Shown here: one piece after another, positions 12,455 to 45,920 of the stretch
Numbering within the stretch: position 1 is the first letter of the stretch
How the letters are laid out: each line of letters opens with the position of its first letter
Virus record (IMG/VR): IMGVR_UViG_3300018906_000001
Length of the DNA: 64,000 bases
Strand: one strand, 5' to 3'
DNA from: a virus
The notes under the pieces: generated by a model
Database searches by the model: none
Told to the model about the DNA's origin: nothing
Seen by the model: only the letters and a program-made list of their open reading frames with translations
Position numbers and translations under genes: made by a program

Positions 12455-13591
12455 TTGCCACTAATAATGATATTACGTCCTGACGACCCCCGCCGCAGCT
12501 TTCCTGCGGCAAGAGGCATTCAAGCGGGCAAAGAAGCGTACGTCTGCTGGCTGAAATATGCCGAGATAGTTCAAGTGTTCAAATTGGACTATCTTGAACT
12601 CCCATTTGAGGAGCGATCGCAACGTACGCCAAAGCCCAAACACGCGCAAGAAATTGCCGACTATGTGGTAGCAGATTTTGAGGATCATATCATTCCTCCA
12701 TTAATCGCCAGTATCAATGGGGAAGTGGAGTTTGAAGTCCCAAACAAGGAGTTTTTCAGGTGCGGAATGTTGCACATCGCGATTGACGCGCTGTTAACAT
12801 TAATCGATGGTCAACACCGTCGTCTGTCATGTGAAAAGTTACTGAAGATCGCTAAGGAGATCGGACTTCTGGAATTGCACAATGAAATGATTCCTGTCTA
12901 TTTCATAATAGATGCGGGATTAAGGCGGAACCAAAAAGCCTTTGCAGCGATTAACGCTAATGTTCGGAATTTGGAGGGCAGCCTTCAGGTTCTTTATAAG
13001 GACACGCCTAGCAACAACTTCACCCTTGAAGTGGTGAAGGAGGTTGAATTCCTGAAAAACTGGACGGAATTTGAGAAAGGGACAGTACCCAAGACTTCCC
13101 CCAAGCTCTTGACTCTCAAGTGGGTTTACAAAGTACATGAGGCGATTCGTCCAGGTAAGTCCCATGAAGAGGATAAAGCTTTCTGCATTGCCTTCTGGAA
13201 TGCACTTGTTGCCAACATTCCCCAGTGGAATGAGTTGGTCGAGAAGAAGATAGAGCCTCGGATGATCCGGCAAGACCATGTTTGTGGTCTCGCAATCTTC
13301 CTGGATGCGATCGCGTCCGTAGGCAAAATGATTAGCTCAACTAAGAAGCCAGAGGAACTAATGAAGTTCTTCGGACCTCTCAACTCAATTGACTGGAGCA
13401 AGTCTAATGCAGACTGGCAAGGTCGAATTCTCGACGAGGAAAAAGTCATTACTGATTCCGAAAATATCAAAAGGTTTGCCATCTACTTGAAGTTCAAGTT
13501 AGGTGTGCCAGTTAAGGCTTTCTCGAAAGAGGAAGTTGAGCTAGAGAATGCTTGCAGTGACTTGTTGAAAGCGAAAAGAAACAAAGGCTAA
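12455..13591 (+). CDS. dndB: DndB / DGQHR-domain protein
   Basis: SQR, IIPPLIASI, LIDGQHR motifs; lies next to dndD. Confidence 0.85.
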   Translation: MPLIMILRPDDPRRSFPAARGIQAGKEAYVCWLKYAEIVQVFKLDYLELPFEERSQRTPKPKHAQEIADYVVADFEDHIIPPLIASINGEVEFEVPNKEFFRCGMLHIAIDALLTLIDGQHRRLSCEKLLKIAKEIGLLELHNEMIPVYFIIDAGLRRNQKAFAAINANVRNLEGSLQVLYKDTPSNNFTLEVVKEVEFLKNWTEFEKGTVPKTSPKLLTLKWVYKVHEAIRPGKSHEEDKAFCIAFWNALVANIPQWNELVEKKIEPRMIRQDHVCGLAIFLDAIASVGKMISSTKKPEELMKFFGPLNSIDWSKSNADWQGRILDEEKVITDSENIKRFAIYLKFKLGVPVKAFSKEEVELENACSDLLKAKRNKG

Positions 13592-13690
13592 GAAAGCCTA
13601 ATAAAAGACGCTCATCCCTTGCGGGGTGGGCGTTTTGCTTATGTAAATTTGTTACAATGAAATAAATGTATGTTTGAATTAAGCAAAATC

Positions 13691-13891
13691 ATGATTACTT
13701 TGAAACGAAAAGCAGAACTGTTAACTAACCATTTGAGGGTAGTTGAGCTTATGTCGCAGTTAACTTCGACCGATTACCTAGAGTCAGATGATTTTGGGCA
13801 GATAGTGAGTGAACTACTGAAGTACACAAACATCTCCCCCGAAGAACGAGACTGGCTATTGGGACAAACAGAGAATCATCAAGAGGCATAA
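13691..13891 (+). CDS. hypothetical protein
   Basis: Promoter 13650 and AAGCAAAATC-ATG leader. Confidence 0.65.
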   Translation: MITLKRKAELLTNHLRVVELMSQLTSTDYLESDDFGQIVSELLKYTNISPEERDWLLGQTENHQEA

Positions 13892-13921
13892 AACCCCCAC
13901 AATTAACTGATCAATGCTCCG

Positions 13922-13937
13922 TCACGGTTCTCCGTGA
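13922..13937 (-). repeat. dispersed palindrome site 4
   Basis: Exact; 24 bp before the dndD start. Confidence 0.95.
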
Positions 13938-13961
13938 TGGAGCTTTTCATAAGGAAACACC

Positions 13962-44025: not shown

Positions 44026-44028
44026 GGT

Positions 44029-44526
44029 TCAGGCAGAATCCTTAGTACTGCGACGTTTTTTAGCTTTTCCACCTAGCACCGCAGAACCTGGTTCAGGCTG
44101 CTTATCCAGTTTGGAAAAACGATTGAAATTGCGATCTCGTGCTTCTTTCAAGTGCTTGATAATGTTCGGCAAATCACTTTGCTGGATATTCTTGACTTCA
44201 ACTCCTCTAGACGCCCCCTTACGTGGGTGGATATACCACAGCACTAAATTTAGTACTGCGACGTTTTTTGGCTTTTCCACCTCGAAGTAGAAATTAACCA
44301 ATTCATTTAGATCGTCAAGACCAAAATCAAACATTGACCAAGAATCATAAAATACCGGGGACGACCATCCGACACCATCGCCAGACATATAATCTTCGTG
44401 CGGACCCCAACTGGTATAGTTTGGATTCATGGTTAATACTTGAAGCATCCAATCAGGGGCATTTAACTCCTTTGCCTCTGCCTGTTCCCTCTCAAAGTAT
44501 TCGCTACCTGGATTGTATTGACGCAT
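44029..44526 (-). CDS. hypothetical phage protein
   Basis: AAGCAAAACC leader upstream; NPNYTSWGPHEDYM. Confidence 0.7.
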   Translation of the reverse strand: MRQYNPGSEYFEREQAEAKELNAPDWMLQVLTMNPNYTSWGPHEDYMSGDGVGWSSPVFYDSWSMFDFGLDDLNELVNFYFEVEKPKNVAVLNLVLWYIHPRKGASRGVEVKNIQQSDLPNIIKHLKEARDRNFNRFSKLDKQPEPGSAVLGGKAKKRRSTKDSA

Positions 44527-44586
44527 AACTTAGTCCTTAGATGGTTTTGCTTGCTATATTACTATGTTATCACATCCATGTAACCA

Positions 44587-44602
44587 TCACGGTTCTCCGT
44601 GA
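44587..44602 (-). repeat. dispersed palindrome site 10
   Basis: Exact; 100 bp before the AIPR-like gene. Confidence 0.95.
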
Positions 44603-44702
44603 TGAAGGAAAAGCCCACATTGAGCCTACTTTTTAAAACGCATTTCCCCCCTCTTATTTAAGATAGACTTGGATTGTAACGTTATGGATATTTACTCGAA
44701 AA

Positions 44703-45920
44703 ATGCCGCCAACAAAATTAGTCATTCCAGTTGTAGCTGCCGACCAACTAAATCACGGAAAGGAGTGTTACTTTATATCGATCGTTCGGGTCTCTGATAT
44801 TCCCTTCGACAAGATTCCTCTTGACGCCAACTTGCGTCGAGCAAAGGGGCAGTCAAGGACAGTGAAGAATATGATCCAAACCTTGAAACAAAAGCCACAG
44901 GATTTCTTTAAATCCAATCTAGGAATCGTTGTGATGGCCGAGGAGGCTTCTTTTATTTATGATGCAGCCGGGAATCCCACCAAGATTGCCATCAAGATGT
45001 TAGGTGGGATTCATGGGGTTGCCAATGGTGGGCATACCCTCTCGGCAATCCAACAAGCATGGGAGGATTCAGTTCCTCTAGGCGACGCATTTGTCGCTAT
45101 GCGTGTCCATGTAGGCGTATCGGACGAGACGCTCAAAAGTTCTGTTGTGCATCTAAATACGGCTGAGAAGGTGGACAAGCGCTCGATTTTTTATAAGTAC
45201 GGGACTTTTGACAACATCAAAGCTGCCCTAGAAGCGCTTGGCTTCAAAAATATCAACTATTACCAGAACCAAGCGTTAGCGGAGAACCGCACCGATTCAA
45301 CCAGGCAGAACGTTATTCATCCATTGAAACTAATAACGGCAATGGATAGCACGAGGTTCGCGGCAAAGAAGAAACAGCACCCAGTGTCCATAATGGGAGC
45401 TGGCAACATCGTAATGGATGTAAAGGCGATTGAGAGAGCAGAGGCGCTAATTTTGGATTTTTTGCCCATAGCTGTTCAGATGGAGAATTTAATCTGCAAA
45501 AAAGCAGTAATCAACCCCAGGAAACTGCCTGGGGTCAAGGTAGGGGAAGGCGTCAAAGACACTATAATGCTCGACGGCACCGTAATTGCCGCCAACATTG
45601 CCAGTATTTTCGCCCTGCCCATAATATCCGCACTCAGGGCTTTTATAGAAGAGGATAAGTGGAAGATACCCATCCAAGAGCTTTTGCCCCAAATTGCGGA
45701 CGAACTTTGGAAAGACTACTCCGCATACCTCAGGAAAAACTGGGATAAAGAACAAAGGAACTTAACAGGAACCCTCCGGAATGAGGAGGTTTGGATCAAT
45801 CTTCATGTATCGGCAACCGAGTTTCAAACTCGTTATTTAAGAAGTTGTTTGGCACGAAATGCCGAGACAAACGGGCAGAATCCGACTCAAGTCAAAGAGA
45901 TTAACAAGGCTCTCAGTTAA
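44703..45920 (+). CDS. AIPR-family protein
   Basis: DANLRR, FFKSNLGIVV, GVANGGHT (cf. IVNGGQT), LNTAEKVDKRS pattern. Confidence 0.6.
   Translation: MPPTKLVIPVVAADQLNHGKECYFISIVRVSDIPFDKIPLDANLRRAKGQSRTVKNMIQTLKQKPQDFFKSNLGIVVMAEEASFIYDAAGNPTKIAIKMLGGIHGVANGGHTLSAIQQAWEDSVPLGDAFVAMRVHVGVSDETLKSSVVHLNTAEKVDKRSIFYKYGTFDNIKAALEALGFKNINYYQNQALAENRTDSTRQNVIHPLKLITAMDSTRFAAKKKQHPVSIMGAGNIVMDVKAIERAEALILDFLPIAVQMENLICKKAVINPRKLPGVKVGEGVKDTIMLDGTVIAANIASIFALPIISALRAFIEEDKWKIPIQELLPQIADELWKDYSAYLRKNWDKEQRNLTGTLRNEEVWINLHVSATEFQTRYLRSCLARNAETNGQNPTQVKEINKALS

Follow-up and report, generated by a model that had tools for sequence, protein, structure and literature searches.

Phosphorothioation (PT) is a self-mark of cellular DNA that is used against phages. 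In the 64,000-nt stretch of IMG/VR virus record IMGVR_UViG_3300018906_000001 analysed here (the window), we found genes encoding homologues of two Dnd proteins, DndB and DndD, separated by a 370-bp spacer that holds a hairpin, a promoter box (TGTTACAAT) and the short orf73. Comparison with related phages gives good support to the view that the window carries a dndC-deleted derivative of a phage-borne dnd module of cyanobacterial origin. The DNA read amounts to about 125 kb of a replicon of about 250 kb, that is, the window and about 60 kb of flanks, whose gene content is described for 10 kb upstream (contigs L011, L013 and L020) and 30 kb downstream. L-numbered names denote contigs, among which L008, L027, L029, L030 and L032 belong to related phages, and L010 and L014 to the cyanobacterium Coleofasciculus PCC 7420. 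The features at the locus are as follows.

10241-11518, plus strand: class-I S-adenosylmethionine (SAM) methyltransferase (MTase) of 425 amino acids (aa), Pfam Methyltransf_31/25/11; the conserved partner upstream of dndB in this lineage
12455-13591, plus strand: dndB (DGQHR / ParB-Srx superfamily), PF14072 with E=8e-74 and 249 bits
13611-13630, then TTTT, plus strand: terminator-like hairpin after dndB, read from the sequence
13650-13658, plus strand: -10 element of the cassette promoter (TGTTACAAT), read from the sequence; the box recurs in repeat families D7, D8 and D16
13670-13891, plus strand: orf73, 73 codons, a truncated N-terminal remnant of orfX that aligns to its first ~66 residues
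13916-13947, plus strand: palindrome "site 4" (core 13922-13937), a 12-bp stem followed by TTTT; the core ends 24 nt before the dndD ATG
13962-15911, plus strand: dndD, TIGR03185 with 618.8 bits against a cut-off of 245.85, model positions 1-650 of 650

Profile matches and intact motifs confirm dndB and dndD, as well as a gene encoding an AIPR-family protein 29 kb away, at the places given for them in a preliminary description of this DNA. Translation of dndB likely starts at the ATG at 12467, resulting in a protein of 374 aa, as in the gene calls of metagenome contigs. DndB scores well above the cut-off of the DGQHR domain model TIGR03187 (154 versus 59 bits) and below the equivalog cut-off of TIGR03233 (232 versus 328 bits), it is 30% identical to Coleofasciculus DndB, and its DGQHR motif (LIDGQHRR, at residue 118) is kept in all phage lineages. 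DndD is also matched by the PADLOC models for DndD and PbeC and has intact ATPase motifs, including Walker A (GMNGGGKT, residue 34), the signature (LSAGEKQ, 547) and the Walker-B region (AIDTPLGRLD, about 574), besides retaining every invariant residue of a 12-sequence alignment of phage-clade and cyanobacterial DndDs that includes the window copy.

Between the window and L032, both of which are without dndC, dndD shows 48 synonymous and 24 non-synonymous differences (dN/dS 0.14), and dN/dS is 0.12 for dndB and 0.15 for the MTase gene. Because these ratios are low, the DGQHR motif is kept in all lineages and the DndD invariant residues are present, dndB and dndD are, as judged from sequence comparison, maintained under purifying selection. 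That they are functionless leftovers in the course of being lost is most improbable: the loss of dndC and the truncation or deletion of orfX would fit such a state, but every lineage has the two reading frames at full length and with their motifs intact, dN/dS stands at 0.12-0.14, and lineages whose proteins differ by about 30% have kept the two genes.

The dndB alleles of the window and L032 (L032:8790-9851) share only 78% amino acid identity, while dndD and the MTase gene share 97% (dS 1.1 versus 0.11). Because dndB is far more diverged than its neighbours in the same two variants, this pattern indicates that the dndB allele was probably replaced by recombination between phage variants. The MTase has syntenic homologues upstream of dndB in L008 and L030 (67-68% identical), and that of L032 is 97% identical. 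A kinship with the MTase encoded beside Coleofasciculus DndB was rejected, as the SAM motif alone matches (36% over 45 aa). Between the MTase gene and dndB there is a repeat block (12160-12395, 70-300 bp upstream of dndB) with direct and inverted units like TTAGGCTAAGTACAGACTAAG and a palindrome with 12-bp arms at about 12165-12190, and this block adjoins a second copy of the 3' end of the methyltransferase gene (12099-12160 versus 11455-11516).

For the remaining Dnd proteins, all window open reading frames (ORFs) of at least 60 aa were scanned against Pfam, and no member of the PAPS_reduct, DndE, class-V aminotransferase or DndFGH-type families was found among them. Searches by tblastn with DndC and DndE of Coleofasciculus and Salmonella gave no match, and none of dndC, dndE, dndA and dndFGH was found in the window or in the ~60-kb flanks. 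The absence of dndA/iscS, dndC, dndE and dndFGH from the window, already stated in the preliminary description, is therefore borne out by the Pfam scan and, for DndC and DndE, also by tblastn. DndE (PF08870) was not detected in any phage contig of the lineage, nor was it matched by tblastn in the window or flanks.

Relatives and history of the phage dnd genes

The cellular DndD proteins closest to that of the window belong to Coleofasciculaceae (55-59% identity; 55% for the Coleofasciculus protein). Five DndD clusters are closer (66-97% identity) and form a separate group, with the following gene orders and identities of their DndD to that of the window.

L030, DndD 71%: MTase-DndB-orf79-DndC(479 aa)-orf177-orfX-DndD
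L027, DndD 71%: TnpB-Lar-DndC(470 aa)-orfX-DndD
L008, DndD 66%: MTase-orf61-DndB-orf148-orf308-orfX-DndD
L029, DndD 72%: orf308-orfX-DndD
L032, DndD 97%: MTase-...-TnpB-DndB-DndD, with orfX deleted

L030 shares its backbone order with the window, the corresponding proteins being 52% (clamp-like protein), 68% (MTase), 71% (DndB and DndD) and 72% (orf292) identical. The gene orfX, encoding 139-212 aa, lies directly before dndD in four related lineages (L008, L027, L029 and L030), is absent entirely from L032 and is shortened to orf73 in the window. The spacer between dndB and dndD had been taken for an unrelated cassette splitting the two genes; instead, it holds the remnant of a gene that normally precedes dndD in the relatives.

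A maximum-likelihood tree unites the phage DndDs in a single clade (100/100) that lies inside the cyanobacterial DndDs. At the base of this clade is L027, which has DndC; the window and L032, neither of them with DndC, together make up one clade; and L008, whose contig shows no DndC, falls with L029 and the DndC-positive L030. Because a DndC-positive lineage is basal and another is nested within the phage clade, the simplest reading is a single acquisition of dndB-dndC-dndD from a filamentous cyanobacterium, followed by at least two losses of dndC.

The DndC proteins of the relatives are true members of the family, that of L027 being 57% identical to Coleofasciculus DndC over the full length and 40% identical to Salmonella DndC. 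In a search of 5.8 billion clusters with phage DndC, only two phage-clade clusters exceeded 60% identity, one of the L027 type and the other of the L030 type, and none could be assigned to the window or to the L008 phage, even though other proteins of both phages are recorded in the same database. These data bear on the idea of an ordinary split dnd system, in which dndC, and perhaps dndE, would reside in the unread half of the replicon and provide normal PT modification. Such a system is quite unlikely. It is true that only about half of the replicon was inspected and that cassette shuffling is rampant in the lineage, but no cluster at 60-75% identity fits the window or L008 phages, and orfX, which elsewhere accompanies DndC and DndD, is decaying in the window.

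The regions L030:7084-14851 and L027:1471-5394, which encode a true DndC (470-479 aa) together with DndD, and in L030 also DndB, without DndE, are themselves candidate virus-encoded phosphorothioation modules. In Coleofasciculus PCC 7420, three dndB copies surround dndC, dndD is also present and dndE lies about 30 kb from dndD; this group departs from the textbook arrangement of a compact dndBCDE-FGH cluster. A search of this genome with TIGR03237 (dnd_assoc_2), which we take to be DndH, gave no match, and none was obtained in any control genome either.

Candidate substitutes for the missing partners

The gene orfX, which accompanies dndD in most relatives, was considered as a substitute for DndE, a protein defined by two ribbon-helix-helix (RHH) repeats, and rejected. 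The AlphaFold2 (AF2) model of the full-length homologue from L029 (pLDDT 77) consists of four helices, a three-stranded sheet and a helix, has no RHH repeats, unlike the double RHH that defines DndE, and gave no match in the PDB at E<=0.001. Two further candidates in the window were the following.

16689-17105 and 17098-17601: paralogous overlapping ORFs with weak ribbon-helix-helix matches

These were also rejected as DndE, given that their matches are below the cut-off, that they have a single RHH and that no homologue is present in the L008 contig. The two ORFs share in their 3' ends a 62-nt repeat that is 95% identical.

A candidate with similarity to DndC lies just outside the window.

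L011:6923-7891, about 1.3-2.2 kb upstream of window position 1, minus strand: P0127, a protein of 322 aa of the 3'-phosphoadenosine-5'-phosphosulfate (PAPS)-reductase superfamily, PF01507 with 30 bits, above the gathering cut-off

Its PP-loop reads SFCGKDS, and among the PADLOC defence models its best match is BrxP (E=3e-7), with DndC at E=7e-4. On the DndC model TIGR03183 it reaches only 16 bits against a cut-off of 290, and comparison with solved structures gave chance-level matches only. We regard P0127 as a candidate that, on these scores, is not a DndC equivalog. Of the proposal that a dndC elsewhere on the replicon would turn the locus into an ordinary one, what stands is that none was found in the ~125 kb read of ~250 kb, and that the PAPS-reductase-superfamily gene located 1.3 kb outside the window is not a dndC.

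P0127 could nonetheless replace DndC, giving a complete modification set of a non-canonical kind. In addition to the profile matches and the PP-loop, it lies in the same accessory region as the MT-A70 and other methyltransferases, and BREX type 4 systems with a PAPS reductase have been reported to make PT (PMC12914056). Against this stand the very low score on TIGR03183, a distance that leaves P0127 adjacent to neither dndB nor dndD, and the size of its family, which has more than 400 members of about 330 aa on many large (100-250 kb) contigs; compared with the tiny phage DndD clade, this suggests that the function of the family is generally independent of DndD. Taken together, we consider a replacement of DndC by P0127 very unlikely.

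The dispersed palindromes and the AIPR gene

The palindrome TCACGG-N4-CCGTGA is present in the window in 11 exact and two near copies (one mismatch), versus none expected by chance, with the following start positions (asterisks mark the near copies).

1554, 9294*, 9937, 13922, 19880, 22560, 27263, 31214, 38294, 44587, 48322*, 56961 and 60419

The copies span 1554-60434 of the window, and the family extends beyond it at similar intervals (L011, L018, L021 and L022), amounting to about one copy per 5 kb over all ~125 kb read. Although the window is 88% coding, 12 of the 13 copies are intergenic, mostly 7-73 nt past a stop codon. Every phage relative seen carries both the palindrome, in the versions CACGG-N4/5-CCGTG, and DndD. 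No copy was found in the 8.7-Mb genome of Coleofasciculus PCC 7420, the closest cellular Dnd carrier, and the exact 16-mer occurs in IMG/VR in 33 contigs with one copy each, which is the chance level and so reveals no further lineage bearing the motif.

The copy next to dndD was flagged as terminator-like, with a predicted RNA fold of -24.4 kcal/mol (z=-4.6), and the site at 13916-13947 possesses the GC-rich stem-loop and the U-tract, on the transcribed strand, that characterize intrinsic terminators. A hairpin with a T-tract is found 23-25 nt before the dndD ATG in five of six lineages (the window, L032, L008, L029 and L030), and the sixth, L027, has a CACAG/CTGTG hairpin at the same position and a CACGG palindrome 32 nt before dndC. 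Among the six dndD-proximal stems, three of the 11 pairs show compensatory double changes, and in three of the sequences there are G-U pairs that can form on the sense strand only. Because of these compensatory and sense-strand G-U changes, the pattern of substitution identifies the dndD-proximal palindrome as a selected RNA hairpin, not a double-stranded protein site. The order in L032, from promoter through ~45 nt, hairpin, T-tract and ribosome-binding site to the ATG, places the element in the dndD leader, and the hairpin and U-tract can be read as a putative intrinsic terminator or attenuator. A clear T-run is present in only four copies (1554, 9294, 9937 and 13922). At the apex of most copies, the TTCT/AGAA loop gives rise to GTTC/GAAC. 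The Dnd systems of Salmonella and E. coli have GAAC/GTTC as their PT consensus.

The other copy singled out in the preliminary description precedes the AIPR gene.

44587-44602, no strand: palindrome "site 10", an exact copy in the divergent intergenic region between the gene at 44029-44526 (minus strand) and the AIPR gene, 100 nt before the AIPR ATG
44703-45920, plus strand: AIPR-family protein of 405 aa, PF10592 with E=2.8e-18 and 67.1 bits against a cut-off of 25, positions 1-298 of 308

Site 10 forms a hairpin of only 8-9 bp without a T-tract. Among defence models, the AIPR gene has a weak match to MzaE only. The gene calls of the related dnd contigs L008, L027, L030 and L032 include no AIPR gene, and in no relative was one seen close to dndB or dndD; AIPR is independent cargo, and no connection with the two dnd genes was detected. 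The proximity of sites 4 and 10 to dndD and AIPR was correctly described, with distances of 24 and 100 nt, but it is weak evidence of a relationship, since 10 of the 88 genes have a palindrome within 110 nt upstream and two of three chosen genes would have one by chance with P ~0.03, a value calculated post hoc.

The preliminary description had gone further and, as one of two readings, proposed that the palindromes are the sites of action of a ParB/SMC-like system for genome organisation or segregation, made up of DndB, DndD and AIPR. This proposal finds no specific support, given that the motif recurs about every 5 kb, is conserved as a structure and that AIPR is unlinked. Recognition as double-stranded sequence, which defines a ParB-parS site, was not seen either, as the dndD-proximal site is conserved as a hairpin and the Coleofasciculus genome has no copy of the motif. 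The attractive idea of a dispersed parS-like site for DndB and DndD is thereby corrected: the palindromes are a family of cassette-boundary stem-loops throughout the genome read, and nothing indicates docking of DndB or DndD at the dndD copy. Because Salmonella DndB binds TACG-N10-CGTA palindromes in its own promoter (PMC4507180), by analogy DndB may contact the dndD-proximal site in a regulatory role.

An organiser of this type is one of three ways in which DndB and DndD could function without any DndC, the others being a decoy or dominant-negative acting on host Dnd/Pbe-type immunity and a PT-independent machine for DNA scanning or defence. In favour of such a function, dndC was lost in two lineages and orfX was truncated or deleted, yet dndB and dndD are under purifying selection; cellular DndB-DndD-DndE sets without DndA and DndC exist, for which a role other than PT was proposed (PMC10853773); Salmonella DndB binds palindromes upstream of dnd genes; every lineage has a CACGG...CCGTG palindrome a short way ahead of dndD or of dndC; and the spacing of the sites is unusually even. 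However, DndE, the obligate partner of DndD in cellular systems, is missing, the dndD-proximal palindrome changes like an RNA structure, and the motif does not occur in a Coleofasciculus genome that encodes DndB, DndC, DndD and DndE. Moreover, the palindrome spacer is 4 or 5 nt in relatives, the window and L032 have an identical 16-mer before dndD even though their DndBs differ by 22%, and AIPR is unlinked. We consider this whole set of dndC-independent functions unlikely, and the organiser accounts for a small part of it.

The carrier phage and the role of DndB and DndD

Because of its phage structural genes, its richness in the cyanobacterial HIP1 octamer (GCGATCGC), abundant in the window, and the large metagenome contigs that match it, the replicon is taken to be a cyanophage of filamentous cyanobacteria of about 250 kb or larger (jumbo). 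Metagenome contigs of 117.7, 156.5, 220.3, 243.3 and 245.3 kb, with different break points, share the window DNA with identical dndB and dndD; those of 243-245 kb include Ga0193598_1000012 and Ga0456421_00167. The profile scan of window ORFs identified the following structural genes.

60473-62023: portal
48722-49906: baseplate wedge
52967-55981: tail-fibre-like protein

Megablast of the window against phages and plasmids returned no match, a 39-mer from the start of dndD had no occurrence in IMG/VR, and a single-protein scan of IMG/VR with DndD was also without match; a DndD profile scan of IMG/VR found only two distant loci, one of which is a provirus with an ordinary DndC-DndD-DndE cluster.

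Among the other genes of the window there are those encoding an integrase, a MerR-resolvase fusion, an SNase-family nuclease, an HNH endonuclease, IscB-like and TnpB proteins and several methyltransferases. The upstream 10 kb encode an MT-A70 methylase, an ArsR-type regulator, a second IscB-like protein, P0127 and a giant tape-measure-like protein, and the downstream 30 kb a C5 methylase, a GAF protein, TnpB, a peptidase and ORFans, with no dnd gene among them. The giant ORF (L011:1-1919, L020:10871-20801), within which contigs end, has 6532-7312 aa: in one contig a 736-aa ORF with a PhageMin_Tail domain precedes a separate ORF of 6532 aa, and in another there is a single ORF of 7312 aa. IscB-like (RRXRR) and TnpB genes are dispersed (window 8060-9220 and 46402-47826; L011:5531-6649; L018:422-1966; L032:7365-8558), and in L032 a TnpB insertion lies immediately upstream of dndB. 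The phage is also rich in methyltransferases (window 851-1489, 1579-3807 and 10241-11518; L018:2091-3125), including MT-A70, a 742-aa protein, the class-I SAM MTase and the C5 DNA methylase just downstream of the window, and the set further contains an ORF with a type I specificity domain. The N-terminus of the 742-aa protein (1579-3807) resembles the dnd-associated methyltransferase TIGR04096, and the rest matches phrog_947, annotated as DNA polymerase processivity factor.

To account for the persistence of dndB and dndD, we favour, at about even likelihood, a dndC-deleted phage dnd module whose DndB and DndD cooperate with the host Dnd machinery or oppose it. An ancestor of the lineage acquired dndB-dndC-dndD from a filamentous cyanobacterium, some relatives have kept DndC, and in the window lineage dndC has gone and orfX is in decay, with dndB and dndD intact under purifying selection. 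DndB and DndD would then most likely take part in the conflict over PT modification by way of the host DndC, DndE and IscS. Phage DndD could join a complex with host DndC and DndE, so that phage DNA would be marked as self, with DndB tuning the marking; alternatively, phage DndB and DndD could perturb the host Dnd system. The suggestion that the phage hijacks or poisons the host Dnd complex is compatible with the data and is kept here as the preferred reading, in view of the derivation of the module from cyanobacteria, the phages being without DndE or DndA, and a dndC that seems dispensable in at least two lineages, with dndB and dndD still under selection.

Several points weigh against this reading. 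Phage DndD is 55% identical to the host type, and its cooperation with host DndC and DndE is presumed, as is the restriction pressure that self-modification would evade, the Coleofasciculus reference having no DndH match by a model, TIGR03237, that matched no control genome. With about half of the ~250-kb replicon read, a divergent dndC or dndE could sit in the remainder. As regards the palindromes, the 6-bp core and the TTCT/AGAA loop are kept even in copies without a T-tract, and, compared with random placement within non-coding DNA, the copies are more evenly spaced (coefficient of variation 0.47, P=0.002); the terminator reading accounts for neither. Finally, a function that needs no dndC would explain equally well why dndC and orfX decay together and dndB and dndD are kept. 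In a form of that function that we hold to be a minor but real possibility, an NTPase of the ParB superfamily (DndB) and an SMC-like ABC ATPase (DndD) would make up a two-protein phage tool that needs no DndC and was kept after at least two losses of dndC, serving either as a subunit mimic that jams or redirects host Dnd/Pbe immunity or as a PT-independent DNA-scanning device.

In a search of the full-text literature, we found no description of phage-encoded DndB, DndC or DndD. If the assignment is true, the sister DndB-DndC-DndD modules would be the first virus-encoded phosphorothioation modules on the record that we found. The lineage as a whole shows both states, with DndB-DndC-DndD in some relatives and DndB and DndD alone in others, including the window, and it therefore offers a natural experiment on the set of Dnd subunits required for a virus to exploit or defeat the PT immunity of its host, as well as on the roles of DndB and DndD apart from DndC.

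Compared with the canonical DndABCDE systems of Salmonella Cerro 87, Streptomyces lividans and Coleofasciculus PCC 7420, the window has an equivalog-level DndD, a DGQHR-family DndB and nearby methyltransferases, as in many dnd loci, but it is without DndC, DndE and DndA, is phage-borne and has each gene in its own terminator-promoter cassette. With the sister modules of L030 and L027 it shares the backbone, the gene order, MTase, DndB and DndD proteins that are 67-72% identical, and a hairpin with T-tract before dndD or dndC, whereas the true DndC of 470-479 aa and the full-length orfX of these modules have no counterpart in the window. To ParB-parS/SMC loading the likeness is at the superfamily level only (DndB being ParB/Srx and DndD an SMC/Rad50-like ABC ATPase), together with a palindrome of 16 bp; in contrast, no ParA or kleisin genes were recognised, and the palindrome evolves as an RNA hairpin and recurs about every 5 kb at gene ends. 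PeSL-type mobile regulatory cassettes, consisting of a stem-loop and an early promoter, were reportedly described in T4-type phages by Arbiol et al. in 2010. They resemble the cassettes of the window in that stem-loop, promoter and leader flank the genes and that gene order is shuffled between relatives, but they belong to another phage group and have a different promoter sequence, and one stem-loop subfamily of the window has an unusually conserved 16-nt core and even spacing. In cells, DndD and DndE are an obligate pair, and the DndB-DndD-DndE triads described by the Aravind lab (NAR 2024, PMC10853773) are similar to the window in having DndB and DndD without a sulfurtransferase and a proposed role other than PT; however, the triads always keep DndE, which was not detected in the phages, where the predicted fold of orfX is a different one. 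Finally, JSS1_004, a phage anti-Dnd protein that acts by kinase shutoff and has no homology to Dnd proteins (PMC12345140), is likewise a phage factor aimed at the host Dnd system, whereas the window phage carries homologues of the host's own subunits.

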